Shown: positions 35,698 to 47,364 of the stretch, in pieces
Layout: each line of letters begins with the position of its first letter
How positions within the stretch are numbered: position 1 is the stretch's first letter
Assembly (NCBI GenBank): GCA_963775425.1
Contig: CAVZJB010000011.1
Coordinates: 576,001 to 640,000 of the forward strand
DNA: 64,000 nucleotides
Direction: 5' to 3'
Source of the DNA: an uncultured delta proteobacterium
Lineage (GTDB): Bacteria; Myxococcota; UBA727; VGSZ01
Translations under genes and position numbers: made by a program
Notes under the pieces: model-generated
Databases searched by the model: none
Seen by the model: the letters and a program-made list of their open reading frames with translations, nothing else
Told to the model about the DNA's origin: nothing

Positions 35698-38553
35698 ATG
35701 GTTACCAACAATCGCCCCTCCTGGTCTCTTGTACTCATCAACGCCTCGGTGCTCCTCCTGGCGGGCGTCGCCGGAGGGTGCCTCACGGGGAACGACGGCA
35801 GCGACGCCGGCCCCGACGTCGAGGTGAAGGCGCCGGTCGTCGAGATTGGCGGTCCAAGCGGCGTCGTCGTCGGCAACAGCGTGACGCTCGCGGCGATCAC
35901 CAGGGACGGGAGCGACGCTTCGTATACGTGGAGCTCGGCGAACCCCGCCGTCGCCGACGTCGACGCGTCCGGCACGGTGCGCGGCTTCTCCCCGGGCGAA
36001 GTGCTCGTCACGGCCGTCGGCGACGACACCCAGGCCAAGGGCGTCCACGCCATCGTGGTGCAGGCGGCGCCTGCGGCGGTGGTGGCGCTGGCCGGTCAGC
36101 ACCGCGTGCAGGTCGGGGCGCGCACGCAGCTCGTCGCGATGACCGTGAACGGCGCCGACACGGGTTACGTGTGGTCGAGTGACAACCAGGAGGTGGCGAC
36201 CGTGGCCTCCGACGGCAACGTCACCGGCATCGACGTCGGCGACGTGGTCATCACCGCCGTCGGCGCGGACACCGGCGCGGTGGGCTCCTTCAGCGTTGCC
36301 GTGACCGGCGCCTCCGCGGTGGTCATCACCGGCCCCTTCTACCTCGCCGTCGGCGACGACGCGGCGCTCAGCGCCACCACCGTCAACGACGTGGACCCCG
36401 ACTACACGTGGACGAGCAGCGACGAGTCGGTGGCCACCATCGACGCCGCCACGGGCGCCATCCACGGCAAGAGCGCGGGCGAGGTCGTCGTCACCGCCAC
36501 CGGCGCGACGTCGGGCCTGAGCGGCACGCTCGGCATCACGGTGCAACAGACCATCCCGCACTTCGACGAGTGGGCGTCGTCGGCGCACGCGAACCGCGCC
36601 GACGAGCCCTTCAACCACTGGAACTCCGAGGGCGAGATCCCCACGTCGTGCGCTCGCTGCCACAGCGACGGCGGCTACCGCGATTACCTCGGCGCCGACG
36701 GCAGCGCGGTCGGCGTCGTCGACTCGGCGCAGCCCATCGGCACCGTGGTGCAATGCACCACCTGTCACAACGACGCCGCCGCGGCGCTCACCTCCGTGAC
36801 CTTCCCCTCGGGCAAGACCCTCACGGGCCTCGGTCCGGAGGCGCGCTGCATGGTGTGCCACCAGGGCCGCGAGTCGGGGAAGACCGTCGAGGCGGAGATC
36901 ACCGCAGCGGGCGTGGGCGACGACGAGCCGAGCTCGCAGCTCGGCTTCGTGAACATCCACTACTACGCCGCCGGCGCCACGCTGAACGCCGGGCGCGTCG
37001 AGGGCGCCTACCAGTACGCCGGCCAGACCTACGACGTGCGCTTCCGCCACGTGCCGGAGCGCGACACCTGCATCAAGTGCCACGACCAGCACACGCTCAA
37101 GATTCGCATCACCGCTTGCCAGGGCTGCCACGAGAACATCTCGACGCAGGCGGACCTCAAGAACATCCGCATGATGTCGTCGATGCACAGCGACTACGAC
37201 GGCGACGGCAACAAGACCGAGGGCATCTACTACGAGATGATCGGCGTGCGTGACCGCGTCATGTCCGTCATGCAGGAGTACGGCCGCGAGAAGGGCGCGC
37301 CCATCTGCTACAACACGGACAAGTATCCCTACTTCTTCAACGACGTCGACGACGACGGCGCCTGCAGCGACGCCGAGGCCGTCTCCAGCAACGGCTATCA
37401 CGAGTGGACGCCGCGCCTCCTGCGCGCGGGCTACAACTACCACGTCGCCACCAAGGACCCCGGCGCCTTCGCGCACAACGCCAAGTACATCATCGAGGCC
37501 CTCTACGACTCCGCGCAGGACGTGAACGGCGCGCTGACGTCGCCCCTCGACATCTCCGCCCTCGTCCGCAACGACCCCGGCCACTTCAACGGCGCCGGCC
37601 AGCCCGCGCGCCACTGGGACAGCAACGAAGGCGTCGACTCCTCCTGCTCGCGCTGCCACGGCGCGTCGCAGGGCTTCCGCTTCTACCTGCAGTACGGCGT
37701 GGGCCAGCAGGTGCTCGAGCAGGGAGACGGCCTCGACTGCGCCACGTGCCACGACACCTTCGGCCACCAGGGCCAGCCGGGCGCGTTCCAGACCGTGTCC
37801 GTCGACAGCGTCACCTTCCCGAGCGGCGTCACCGTGACGCGGCCCGGGGACAAGGGGAACATCTGCGCCACCTGCCACCAGGGCCGCGAGAGCAAGGTGA
37901 GCGTCGACGCGATGCTCGACTCGGGCGGCAAGCTCTCCTTCAAGAACGTGCACTACTATCCCGCCGGCGCCGTGCGCATGGGAGCGGTGGCGCAGGTCGG
38001 CTACGAGTACGACGGCAAGCAGTACGCGGGTGAGTGGACCGGCCACCTCGGCGGGAGCTCCTGCGTGGACTGCCACTCGCCGCAGAACACCGACCACACC
38101 TTCATGATCGAGGACAACCTGCAGCGCTGCCAGCTCTGCCACGTGGGCATCACCCAGCCCACCGACATCCGCACCTCGCGTCACCCCGACGACACCGACG
38201 GCGACGGCGACACCAACGAGACGCTCGCCGGTGAGCTCGACGGCGTGGCCTCGGCGCTGCTCAACGAGATGAACCTCGTGGGCGGCCTCTGCCACGGCGA
38301 AGCGTACCCGTACTTCTTCAAGGACAACGACGGCTCCGGCGGCGAGTGCGACCCCGGCGAGCAGAGCAACCCGAACAAGTTCACCGCGTTCACGCCCGAG
38401 CTCGTCAAGGCCACGTACAACTACCAGCTCTGGCACAACGACCCCGGCGCCTGGGCCCACAACTTCGACTACATCGCCGAGCTCCTCATCGACTCCATCG
38501 ACGACCTCGGCGGCGACACCTCCAACTTCGTCCGCCCGGAGCCCACGCCATGA
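35698..38553 (+). CDS. Decaheme c-type cytochrome lipoprotein: three Big_2 Ig-like domains plus two tandem pentaheme modules
   Basis: Lipobox AGGC; three Y(T/V)W(S/T)S..VA.(V/I) repeats; CARCH, CTTCH, CMVCH, CIKCH, CQGCH, then CSRCH, CATCH, CATCH, CVDCH, CQLCH; each module ends DPGA(F/W)AHN..YI.E.L.DS. Confidence 0.9.
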   Translation: MVTNNRPSWSLVLINASVLLLAGVAGGCLTGNDGSDAGPDVEVKAPVVEIGGPSGVVVGNSVTLAAITRDGSDASYTWSSANPAVADVDASGTVRGFSPGEVLVTAVGDDTQAKGVHAIVVQAAPAAVVALAGQHRVQVGARTQLVAMTVNGADTGYVWSSDNQEVATVASDGNVTGIDVGDVVITAVGADTGAVGSFSVAVTGASAVVITGPFYLAVGDDAALSATTVNDVDPDYTWTSSDESVATIDAATGAIHGKSAGEVVVTATGATSGLSGTLGITVQQTIPHFDEWASSAHANRADEPFNHWNSEGEIPTSCARCHSDGGYRDYLGADGSAVGVVDSAQPIGTVVQCTTCHNDAAAALTSVTFPSGKTLTGLGPEARCMVCHQGRESGKTVEAEITAAGVGDDEPSSQLGFVNIHYYAAGATLNAGRVEGAYQYAGQTYDVRFRHVPERDTCIKCHDQHTLKIRITACQGCHENISTQADLKNIRMMSSMHSDYDGDGNKTEGIYYEMIGVRDRVMSVMQEYGREKGAPICYNTDKYPYFFNDVDDDGACSDAEAVSSNGYHEWTPRLLRAGYNYHVATKDPGAFAHNAKYIIEALYDSAQDVNGALTSPLDISALVRNDPGHFNGAGQPARHWDSNEGVDSSCSRCHGASQGFRFYLQYGVGQQVLEQGDGLDCATCHDTFGHQGQPGAFQTVSVDSVTFPSGVTVTRPGDKGNICATCHQGRESKVSVDAMLDSGGKLSFKNVHYYPAGAVRMGAVAQVGYEYDGKQYAGEWTGHLGGSSCVDCHSPQNTDHTFMIEDNLQRCQLCHVGITQPTDIRTSRHPDDTDGDGDTNETLAGELDGVASALLNEMNLVGGLCHGEAYPYFFKDNDGSGGECDPGEQSNPNKFTAFTPELVKATYNYQLWHNDPGAWAHNFDYIAELLIDSIDDLGGDTSNFVRPEPTP

Positions 38554-46411: not shown

Positions 46412-47364
46412 CGACGTCGATGTCGCCCTCGGAGCCAAAAACGGCTGCGGCCAAAGCAGAACGCCACGGCGCGCGCATCGGGGTCCGGGGCTTCGCGGTG
46501 GTCGCGGTGCTCGCCGTCGGCGCCGTCGGGGCGCGCGCGCTCCCCGACCGAGACGCGCGCGACGACGAGAAGGCGGCGGTGGAGGCGCGCGCGAAGACCG
46601 TGCGGGCCACGCGCTCGCTGGCGCCGTTGCCGAAGGGGGTGGAGGCGGTGTCGGTGCACGACCCGTTCGACTCCGAGGACTGCAGCTCGTGTCACGCGTC
46701 GGACGACAAGGACAACCCCGGCGCCGTCGAGGACACGTCGAGCGCCCTGTGCCTCGGCTGTCACGACAATCCCGCCGCCGGCGTCAAGGGCGTGTTCCAC
46801 AAGCACGGCGGCGCCGGCGGCCGCTGCCTCGACTGCCACAACCCGCACAACTCGCTGCAGGAGCACCTGCTGCACGCGCCGCCGCAGAAGCTGTGCGCGA
46901 GCTGCCACGTCGACAAGGAGCGCGGCGCCTTCGAGCACCAACCCATCGAGGCGCCCGGATCGTGCACCAAGTGTCACACGCCGCACGGCTCCGCCACCGA
47001 CGCGCGCCTCCTGAGGTCGGCGTATCCCGCCACGTTCTACGCGCCCTACGTCCGCGGGGCGTACGCGCTCTGCTTCTCGTGCCACGACCCGAAGCTCGTG
47101 GAACAGGCCAAGACCACCACCGCCACGATGTTCAGGGACGGCGACAAGAACCTGCACACGGTGCACGTGATGCGCGACGACAAGGGGCGCTCCTGCGGCG
47201 CGTGCCACGACATGCACGCGGGCAAGCGCAGGAACCTCGTGCACGACGACGTCGCCTTCGGCAGCCATGGTTGGCGGCTGCCGCTCGGCTTCCGCCAGAC
47301 CGACGACGGCGGCAGCTGCGCGAGGACCTGCCACATGGCGCGCAGCTACTCCCGCCGGCGCTGA
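46408..47364 (+). CDS. Octaheme cytochrome c (doubled-CXXCH / DmsE-like repeats)
   Basis: N-terminal hydrophobic segment; CSSCH, CLGCH, CLDCHNPH, CASCH, CTKCHTPH, CFSCH, CGACH plus CARTCH; ATGA overlap. Confidence 0.88.
   Translation: MTTSMSPSEPKTAAAKAERHGARIGVRGFAVVAVLAVGAVGARALPDRDARDDEKAAVEARAKTVRATRSLAPLPKGVEAVSVHDPFDSEDCSSCHASDDKDNPGAVEDTSSALCLGCHDNPAAGVKGVFHKHGGAGGRCLDCHNPHNSLQEHLLHAPPQKLCASCHVDKERGAFEHQPIEAPGSCTKCHTPHGSATDARLLRSAYPATFYAPYVRGAYALCFSCHDPKLVEQAKTTTATMFRDGDKNLHTVHVMRDDKGRSCGACHDMHAGKRRNLVHDDVAFGSHGWRLPLGFRQTDDGGSCARTCHMARSYSRRR

Follow-up and report, generated by a model that had tools for sequence, protein, structure and literature searches.

Can a single operon specify a complete electron path between the quinone pool and the cell surface? 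The question is raised by nine co-oriented genes, g1 to g9, whose ends and starts interlock at positions 35683-47364 on the + strand of the window, the 64,000-nucleotide stretch of DNA analysed here (C11:576001-640000 of the 8.26-Mb genome of an uncultured myxobacterium, in 18 contigs with ~72% G+C). What is special to the window is that a triad of outer-membrane barrel (g6), 11-heme cytochrome (g7), and repeat lipoprotein (g8) is fused head-to-tail with a Cbc4-like module (g2 to g4), a decaheme protein with a predicted OcwA fold (g1), an MtrA-like octaheme protein (g9), and a monoheme cytochrome (g5). We favour the reading that the operon encodes a trans-envelope electron conduit of the porin-cytochrome (Pcc) kind with its own link to the quinone pool, and give it about an even chance of being correct.

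Gene order and the proposed electron path

The g1/g2, g3/g4, g4/g5, and g8/g9 junctions are 4-nucleotide ATGA overlaps, and those of g5/g6, g6/g7, and g7/g8 are 4-nucleotide GTGA overlaps. The g2/g3 junction is a 14-nucleotide overlap, and with the chosen starts all eight junctions of the operon overlap. The heme motifs of g1 to g9 number, in order, 10, 4, 0, 0, 1, 0, 11, 16+4, and 7+1, which amounts to 49 CxxCH and five CxxxCH/CxxxxCH motifs, or 54 heme sites. As a control for chance occurrence, the other 35 of the 41 + strand stop-to-stop open reading frames (ORFs) of at least 80 residues between 35000 and 48000 contain no CxxCH. The nine genes contain no CxxCK motif, and Pfam and NCBIfam scans of their products detected no molybdopterin subunit and identified g3 as NrfC-like and g4 as NrfD. 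Each of the nine genes is single-copy across the genome. The overlaps, the motif counts, and the lack of CxxCK and of a molybdopterin subunit had all been reported in an initial annotation of the window, and the coordinates, counts, and family scans confirm them. The start of g1 given there, 35698, is usable, but the ATG at 35683, with GAGGAG 4-9 nucleotides upstream, is at least as good.

In the favoured reading, g4, an NrfD-type subunit of about ten helices, would exchange electrons with menaquinone or menaquinol at the inner membrane. Electrons would enter the periplasm by way of g3, the Tat-exported Fe-S protein, and g2, the anchored tetraheme, as proposed for Cbc4, alternative complex III (ACIII), and DsrJOP. 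The MtrA-like octaheme g9 and the monoheme g5, soluble or anchored, would serve as a relay. The 11-heme g7 would sit in or under the plug-less 22-strand barrel of g6 and transfer electrons to g8, the repeat lipoprotein with 20 hemes, at the cell surface, and g1 would be a terminal reductase or oxidase, located at the surface or in the periplasm. All nine proteins might thus form one wire, a reading that is favoured because eight of the eight junctions overlap. The conduit is favoured because the barrel has multiheme neighbours in all 27 evaluable genome loci, and the link between g1 and the conduit because g1 and the barrel are at most 10 kb apart in both sampled genomes that have the two. The features of the region are listed below.

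Features of the operon, its upstream region, and its flanks (positions in the window)
Feature	Position	Strand	Characteristics
Pyruvate phosphate dikinase (PPDK)	32547-35444	-	flanking gene on the opposite strand, unrelated to the operon
Candidate operator TGTGTGGAATTCCACACA	35580..35597	.	18-bp perfect palindrome, 86 nucleotides upstream of the g1 start
g1, 956-residue decaheme lipoprotein	35683 (or 35698)-38553	+	10 CxxCH, lipobox ...AGVAGGC, three Big_2
g2, 228-residue anchored tetraheme, CbcS/NrfB-like position	38550..39236	+	4 CxxCH
g3, 307-residue periplasmic Fe-S subunit (NrfC/PsrB/DsrO/CbcT type)	39223..40146	+	Fer4_11 70.9 bits, Tat signal TRRGALK
g4, 434-residue NrfD-family membrane quinone/quinol subunit	40143..41447	+	PF03916 150.7 bits, ~10 transmembrane segments
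g5, 134-residue class I monoheme cytochrome c with signal peptide	41444..41848	+	one CxxCH at residue 54
g6, 462-residue outer-membrane beta-barrel, unnamed family	41845..43233	+	22 strands, no plug, ends ...GGGW
g7, 316-residue periplasmic 11-heme cytochrome, 28.7 residues per heme	43230..44180	+	11 CxxCH, Sec-type signal ending AQA
g8, 744-residue 20-heme lipoprotein	44177..46411	+	lipobox ...LVAAAC; four ~170-residue tandem repeats, each with 4 CxxCH and 1 CxxxCH/CxxxxCH
g9, 318-residue octaheme, N-terminal signal or anchor	46408..47364	+	7 CxxCH and CARTCH; partial MtrA/DmsE similarity
MscS channel	47399-48646	-	flanking gene on the opposite strand, unrelated, convergent with the operon

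Folds and families of the encoded proteins

The barrel protein g6 belongs to no family in Pfam (E<=0.01) or NCBIfam, and the MtrB_PioB model (PF11854) has no match in g6 or in the rest of the genome. The AlphaFold2 (AF2) prediction of g6, calculated from an 11-sequence alignment, is a plug-less 22-strand barrel that starts at residue 40 (pLDDT 76.8, pTM 0.72), in agreement with the transmembrane barrel expected for 41845..43233 in the initial annotation. Foldseek matches to Occ porins and ushers at E ~1e-9 are generic. VIA-align returned Z-scores of 17.6 for OpdQ and 17.5 for FimD, and aligned 350-362 residues to 22-strand SusC/TonB-dependent barrels. As modelled, g6 is a large generic outer-membrane barrel. 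No MtrB chain is among the barrel matches listed, which is not evidence that the folds differ. With neither plug nor long loops, a 22-strand barrel would form an open hole if nothing filled it. A word-indexed search for relatives of g6 found 11 proteins, the query included. With a profile, the number of relatives rose to 468 cluster representatives (E<=0.001), 318 of them at E<=1e-10 and 94 at E<=1e-30. A search of the ESM Atlas with g6 gave only unnamed outer-membrane-barrel clusters, from Nitrospirota, Myxococcota, and Planctomycetota. Of 10 distant relatives looked up, the one that bears an organism name comes from a metagenome-assembled genome (MAG) of Brocadiales, and anammox bacteria are among the Pcc carriers listed in the available sections of PMC4245776.

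Ten of the heme motifs of g7 are invariant in an alignment of 18 homologs and the eleventh is nearly so, and a sequence search of the PDB gave only weak matches to c7 and nine-heme cytochromes (E>=0.0013). The CxxxxCH/CxxCH domain model TIGR01904 matches g8 in four stretches with 125.2 bits. The repeats of g8 are 45-60% identical to one another, and its homologs contain from one to six such units; a sequence search of the PDB found no match to g8. A cysteine right after the hydrophobic signal was read by eye in g8 and in 25 of 26 homolog rows (24 of 25 distinct loci, because L035 duplicates L006), and a strict regular expression for the lipobox matched 12 of the 26 homologs. The initial annotation had called for a complex prediction of the barrel with the 11-heme protein. 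The heme-free prediction of g6 with g7 scored 0.43 (runs 0.25, 0.52, and 0.43), while the best of three controls scored 0.00, which weakly supports the contact. Of 157 solved complexes, 116 reached the mark set for such predictions, against 2 of 215 mismatched pairs; both of these mismatches, but just 18 of the 157 solved complexes, reached it with a score of 0.60 or lower.

The octaheme g9 matches Paired_CXXCH_1 with 102.6 bits and the DmsE family (TIGR03508) with 76.5 bits, against a cut-off of 192.2. Its residues 84-203 align with residues 153-272 of 6r2q_A over four heme motifs (E 2.7e-12), a similarity to MtrA that the initial annotation, which counted the eight hemes correctly, had missed. 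We take chain A of 6r2q to be MtrA of the Shewanella MtrCAB structure, although the label given by the tool reads otherwise. The chain is a 333-residue multiheme protein, and its length is consistent with that of MtrA in the available sections of PMC4245776.

The g6-g7-g8 core recurs at 28 genome loci, all from Myxococcota MAGs, and at 35 metagenome loci. Seventeen loci came from a scan of the genome collection with the barrel profile, each of them from a MAG titled Myxococcota or 'delta-proteobacterial'. Thirteen of 400 further genomes sampled from the phylum have the barrel; for the family of the window the count is 1 of 10. Flanks were taken for 12 of the 13, with G084 omitted since it holds the L002 locus; as L035 repeats L006, the distinct genome loci number 28. 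Multiheme cytochrome genes adjoin the barrel in 27 of 27 evaluable genome loci (L038 ends at the barrel), and the same pairing is found in metagenome contigs. A g7-like gene directly downstream of the barrel occurs in 20 of the 28 genome loci and a g8-like gene in 25. At L007-L010, L012, L015, and L018 the g8-like gene lies next to the barrel and a g7-like domain is positioned ~4 kb further. Barrel, 11-heme cytochrome, and repeat lipoprotein together make up the conserved unit. A sub-type with a 10+2/3-heme g8-like gene directly after the barrel is seen at L008-L010, L012, L015, and L018; at L010 and L012, where the ORF was resolved, a ~760-810-residue protein with 30 hemes has a g7-like C-terminus.

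Section 8 of PMC4245776, as far as available, describes Pcc clusters by 18-22 trans-membrane motifs, a periplasmic cytochrome with 5-14 hemes, and an outer cytochrome that is a lipoprotein. The 22 strands of g6 are within the range given for OmbB-OmaB-OmcB and its relatives, including the two-gene clusters of Anaeromyxobacter and Kuenenia. The adjacent g7, which has 11 CxxCH, a Sec-type signal, and a 4-nucleotide overlap with g6, corresponds to the periplasmic cytochrome. The lipobox, the 20 heme sites, and the cysteine kept after the signal in homologs make g8 a candidate for the outer lipoprotein, which would be exposed at the surface. The triad is set beside OmbB, OmaB, and OmcB by such descriptive traits, not by sequence, and no OmbB-type model in Pfam or NCBIfam matches any of the nine products. 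In contrast to the Pcc clusters, the outer cytochrome here has 20 hemes in five-heme repeats of the CxxxxCH type, and the triad is fused to the NrfCD quinol module, the MtrA-like octaheme, and the OcwA-fold decaheme. With MtrCAB (6r2q), the triad would share the principle of placing a cytochrome within a barrel. However, compared with MtrCAB, MtoAB, and PioAB, the g6 barrel has 22 strands, falls outside MtrB_PioB, and is conserved next to g7 rather than g9. The hemes of g9 number 8 and not the 10 of MtrA/DmsE, and its TIGR03508 score stays below the cut-off. The best match to MtrC/OmcA (TIGR03507) is that of g2, with 25.2 bits against a cut-off of 209.3, whereas g1 and g8 have no match. The likeness to Ext, Mtr, and Pcc conduits drawn in the initial annotation holds for the descriptive traits of Pcc, but not for the Mtr families PF11854, TIGR03508, and TIGR03507.

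One-cluster conduits proposed to span the whole envelope include the mto/mtr clusters with CymA (PMC4245776, in part). The PCC3 and PCC4 clusters of iron oxidisers encode a porin, many-heme periplasmic or extracellular cytochromes, and an inner-membrane protein, and have been proposed to span the whole envelope for electron uptake; PCC4 subgroup II also has a pfam13247 Fe-S gene (PMC5566968, available sections). According to the same sections, the hosts are Proteobacteria and the inner-membrane protein is of the di-heme-b type, ~300 residues long, with 5 helices and two WX3HX13H motifs. In contrast, no 5-helix di-heme protein was found in the operon, whose sole multi-transmembrane product is the 10-helix NrfD g4. 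The union of inner- and outer-membrane modules in one operon, pointed out in the initial annotation, is present here but is not unprecedented. No description of an identical NrfCD-plus-barrel operon, or of the barrel or g1 families, was found in the open-access literature; the available part of PMC12133095 treats neither NrfD nor Myxococcota.

The quinone module begins with g2, which has a hydrophobic anchor or signal at residues 4-22 and an Ala/Pro-rich linker reaching to about residue 100, followed by the 4 CxxCH. Its matches to the Cytochrome_C7, NrfB, and DmsE models are weak. Homologs of g2 adjoin g3-g4 homologs also at L002, L003, L045, and L046, and at L045 and L046, in barrel-bearing genomes, the g2-g3-g4 trio is a free-standing unit. 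The NCBIfam scores of g3 are 195 bits for DsrO (cut-off 200) and 158 bits for QrcC, and its nearest solved chains are the C-terminal domains of ACIII ActB, PsrB (2vpw), and ArrB (6cz7). Past the signal, g3 contains 15 cysteines grouped 3+4+4+4, besides Cys40 in a lipobox-like AAGC. Given the group of three cysteines, one of the four [4Fe-4S] sites may differ from the others, and the Tat signal followed by AAGC/Cys40 (39223-39345) suggests that g3 may be a Tat-exported lipoprotein. The NCBIfam model of DsrP matches g4 with 374.7 bits, above the cut-off of 350. The protein has 10 hydrophobic segments, and ActC of ACIII (6f0k_C, E 7.6e-13) is its nearest solved chain. DsrP was rejected as a functional label for g4, because the DsrMK context is absent. 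The monoheme g5 matches PF00034 with 42.9 bits and Cytochrome_CBB3 with 35.4 bits.

Judged by its sequences, the g2-g4 module probably works like Cbc4, SirCD, DsrJOP, or the ACIII core. It is not regarded as a member of the Dsr, ACIII, or Nrf systems, because DsrM/K, a triheme DsrJ, a molybdopterin-like domain, and a CxxCK NrfA are lacking. In Geobacter Cbc4 (CbcSTU), whose role is still unassigned, CbcS is an anchored tetraheme with a linker, CbcT an Fe-S protein, and CbcU a membrane subunit (10.1101/2025.04.14.648717, available sections); CbcT is orthologous to DsrO (PMC11434368, in part). The pairing of a poly-ferredoxin with an NrfD-type subunit in g3-g4 is that of Cbc4 (CbcS-CbcT-CbcU, GSU0068-0070), SirCD of Shewanella, DsrJOP, and the ACIII core (10.1101/2025.04.14.648717 and PMC11434368, both in part). 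A tetraheme with anchor and linker and an NrfD-type subunit are found in g2 and g4, and the resemblance to Cbc4/CbcSTU proposed in the initial annotation stands as one of architecture. The module of the window is, however, translationally coupled to outer-membrane components, which the available sections of 10.1101/2025.04.14.648717 do not report for Cbc4. None of the nine products matches DsrM, DsrK, or the triheme DsrJ of DsrMKJOP, and g2 has four hemes. Unlike ACIII, the operon encodes one NrfD and not two, the 4-heme g2 and not a pentaheme ActA, and in g3 a ferredoxin-only protein without the molybdopterin-like ActB1 domain. The difference from NrfABCD is evident from the scores of 126.8 for NrfC (cut-off 377.6) and 32.2 for NrfD (cut-off 347.6) and from the lack of CxxCK. 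At C11:822137-822814 and C4:544031-544750, both close to 5-heme ORFs, there are two more NrfC-like genes with 30-33% identity to g3, which probably belong to ACIII clusters; one of them is ~5 kb from a heme-copper oxidase gene (C11:816100-817422).

The decaheme g1 scores 71.1 bits with Big_2 and 46.5 bits with the MtrC/MtrF II-IV domain in Pfam. Its signal and lipobox are followed by the three immunoglobulin (Ig)-like Big_2 domains and then by two halves, homologous in an alignment, that each consist of a pentaheme and a helical part. The AF2 model of residues 290-956 has a pLDDT of 89.8 and a pTM of 0.86. Foldseek found nothing at E<=0.001, with OcwA the first entry at 8.5e-3, and the NrfA/OcwA fold of g1 was recognised because VIA-align was used; Foldseek alone was insufficient. 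VIA-align ranks OcwA (6i5b) first with Z 11.6 (rmsd 3.7, 214 residues aligned), ahead of the S-layer undecaheme of C. ferrireducens (6qvm, Z 10.9), NrfA (6v0a, Z 10.3), octaheme nitrite reductase (ONR, Z 9.7), and further NrfA structures (Z 9.5 and 8.6). These best six rows are all NrfA-family multiheme proteins. MccA, which matches the second half of g1, has Z 6.9, an HAO-like protein Z 5.0, and unrelated rows at most 5.0. Sequence identity to the structural matches is just 14-17%. Each half of g1 is predicted to have the NrfA/OcwA fold, with the pentaheme core and C-terminal helical bundle that are shared by OcwA of Thermincola potens (6i5b), the undecaheme of Carboxydothermus ferrireducens (6qvm), and NrfA. 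Unlike OcwA and 6qvm, g1 is duplicated in tandem (2 x 5 hemes), comes as a lipoprotein from a Gram-negative organism, and carries three Ig-like domains. OcwA, an NrfA-fold protein, has been characterised as a terminal reductase of the cell surface for extracellular electron transfer and shows some activity with nitrite and hydroxylamine (PMC6703420, available sections).

The C-terminal 667 residues of g1 have >3686 relatives at E<=0.001 among 8000 candidates scored, many of them ~55% identical, and no useful name was found among these relatives. The heme count of g1 in the initial annotation was right, but according to VIA-align the protein is not a generic decaheme; it is a tandem NrfA/OcwA-fold protein of a very large family. 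Besides the 10 motif histidines, 9 histidines are invariant and 1 is nearly invariant in the family alignment, which would allow bis-His ligation of all ten hemes. Relatives of g1 are present in 33 of 400 other Myxococcota genomes, a count that takes in the unpublished G195. At 1 of 29 g1 loci (L049, which is L002), g2/g3 are within 1.5 kb of g1. In two ~10 Mb myxobacterial genomes without the barrel (L078:7914-14032 and L079:3381-9703), a g1 relative follows a NapC/NirT tetraheme and an 800-residue protein with two CxxCH, a three-gene set that looks like an unstudied quinol-linked system.

Linkage of the modules and rival explanations

Inner- and outer-membrane modules are adjacent in the window, at L002, and at L003, where the order g2-g3-g4-g9-g6-g7-g8 is found on one strand. 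L002, from the same family and with 45% barrel identity, has both g1-g5 and g6-g8 complete. A g1 gene is near the barrel at 3 of 28 genome loci (L002, L004, and L006) and at 1 of 35 metagenome loci (L089, which repeats L006). The two sampled genomes with barrel and g1, G084 and G046, keep both genes within 10 kb (L002; L006/L035), and L004 does likewise. Close to the barrel, g9 at >=60 bits occurs at 4 of 28 loci (L003, L040, L042, and L043) and g5 at 2 of 28 (L002 and L040). The packing of both modules into one operon is rare.

Several observations weigh against the nine genes acting as one conduit. The NrfD gene g4 stands beside the barrel in just 2 of 28 genome loci (L002 and L003) and in 0 of 35 metagenome loci, many of which are short contigs; the modules are thus usually encoded separately, as the initial annotation had stated. 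At L002 they are convergent on opposite strands and not co-transcribed. Among five barrel-bearing genomes that were searched, two lack a g4 relative at E<=1e-20 and three carry one (41-43% identity) on another contig. One family, whose genomes are counted among the 33, has g1 in 21 of 172 genomes and the barrel in 0 of 172, and the g1 relatives beside a NapC/NirT tetraheme without a barrel indicate that g1 does not need an outer-membrane conduit. The support from the g6-g7 complex prediction is weak, with a partner pLDDT of at least 57 and agreement between runs in at least 0% of contacts. The modules are not obligately linked. The self-contained linear path of the initial annotation had the right list of parts, but the modules are separable in relatives and the path itself can only be proposed.

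Many of these points suit an explanation in which two systems are merely co-transcribed. Genes g1-g5 would encode an Nrf-like periplasmic reductase, with g1 as an NrfA-fold terminal enzyme acting on a soluble substrate, g2 as an NrfB-like wire, and g3/g4 as an NrfCD-like quinol dehydrogenase, and g6-g9 a separate porin-cytochrome conduit fed by any periplasmic cytochrome. We consider this explanation, with all of these roles together, rather unlikely. The order of g1-g4 (catalytic-type multiheme, small multiheme, NrfC, NrfD) mirrors that of nrfABCD, and the Z-scores of g1 to the three NrfA structures, its relatives beside a quinol dehydrogenase at L078 and L079, the family with g1 but no barrel, the opposite strands at L002, and the barrel triad without NrfCD in 26 of 28 genome loci all agree with it. 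On the other hand, g1 has no CxxCK, and its conserved distal-ligand histidines fit hemes that are all bis-His ligated better than an open catalytic site, yet OcwA has open hemes without CxxCK (PMC6703420, available sections). The three Big_2 domains of g1 are typical of surface proteins, g1 and the barrel are neighbours when they occur in one genome, and every junction between the two halves overlaps in the window.

The direction of flow cannot be read from sequence, in which we agree with the initial annotation, and the conduit could also work inwards. Electrons from extracellular Fe(II), Mn(II), reduced humics, or a partner cell would then reach a terminal oxidase through g5, and NrfCD would push some of them uphill to the quinone pool. 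The arrangement parallels the mto cluster (MtoA, MtoB, the monoheme MtoD, and CymA), with g5 as the analogue of MtoD. As a class I monoheme, g5 is of a carrier type that commonly works with oxidases, and the genome has two heme-copper oxidase genes. NrfD-type complexes run either way, and in NCBIfam the Qrc complex carries the name of a menaquinone reductase. MtrK/MtoD are mentioned in the available sections of PMC4245776, and the one-cluster PCC3/PCC4 conduits have been proposed to take up electrons (PMC5566968, in part). Nevertheless, g5 is kept in just 2 of 28 related genome loci, and a RuBisCO large subunit was not found in the genome, which is 94.55% complete, so that lithoautotrophy of the Calvin-Benson-Bassham (CBB) type is not indicated; the latter point is weak, since inward flow need not serve autotrophy. 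We hold inward flow to be distinctly unlikely. Lower still is the probability that there is no extracellular electron transfer at all, with g6 an ordinary porin or exporter barrel and the cytochromes a periplasmic electron store or detoxifying network. The generic structural matches of g6 (Occ porins, ushers, and TonB-dependent barrels) and its lack of sequence match to MtrB_PioB are what this would predict, but it is made very improbable by the multiheme genes beside the barrel at 27 of 27 evaluable genome loci, by a plug-less barrel that would be an open hole unless filled, and by g8 relatives that are consistently lipoproteins with modular heme repeats.

The reading of the operon as a quinone-linked conduit can be taken further. 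It is possible, if somewhat unlikely, that g1 is a cell-surface terminal reductase of the OcwA type joined to a Gram-negative porin-cytochrome conduit, and that the nine genes are a complete, portable wire from menaquinol to mineral. Electrons would pass from the NrfCD quinol dehydrogenase through the MtrA-like relay and an 11-heme plug in a new 22-strand barrel family to a 20-heme surface rod and the Ig-domain decaheme.

Genomic setting and meaning for Myxococcota

The palindrome TGTGTGGAATTCCACACA upstream of g1 has no second copy in the 8.26-Mb genome, even at up to 3 mismatches, and may be a regulator site or operator of the operon. A search for sequencing runs, made for expression data on 40143-46411, listed none. 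A promoter and terminator consensus scan of 35300-47700 was uninformative: it returned 0 sigma-70-like sites and 5 terminator-like sites, all on the - strand and at the level of shuffled sequence (mean 4.2), and no + strand terminator-like site inside the operon. A sigma-54 promoter upstream of g1 was rejected, since TGGCAC is present but the -12 element is poor. At L002, ~35 nucleotides upstream of the g1 homolog, there is a sigma-54-like TGGCAC-N5-CTGCA that by eye looks better than the one in the window.

Just downstream of the MscS gene, a giant ORF of 2875 residues with Big_13 and Big_3_3 Ig-like domains occupies 48781-57408 (+) and is followed by a 1009-residue PKD-like protein at 58701-61730. 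Elsewhere in the genome, multiheme ORFs with 53, 30, and 29 CxxCH are positioned at C11:445609-452520, C4:372511-375462, and C11:175126-178287, and a cluster of ORFs with 9, 9, 14, and 7 CxxCH at C5:518208-540227. The organism is unusually cytochrome-rich.

The usual view of Myxococcota is that of aerobic predators and degraders, and to our knowledge there has been little work on their part in the redox cycling of metals and humics, Anaeromyxobacter aside. The operon is a compact candidate for a full envelope-spanning electron path. Three of its parts, the 22-strand barrel family with its 468 cluster representatives, the 11-heme partner, and the lipoprotein of five-heme repeats, have no characterised member, and g1 represents a very large unstudied family of tandem OcwA/NrfA-fold decahemes. 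Translational coupling and the single copy of each of the nine genes make the cluster well suited to heterologous expression as a unit, which could show whether an NrfCD-type quinol module feeds a porin-cytochrome complex directly. If g1 were indeed an OcwA-type reductase at the surface end of the wire, Gram-positive and Gram-negative solutions to extracellular respiration would be joined in one operon, and the g1 family, whose >3686 relatives include large myxobacterial genomes of the cultured type, would mark an unrecognised respiratory capacity in Myxococcota.

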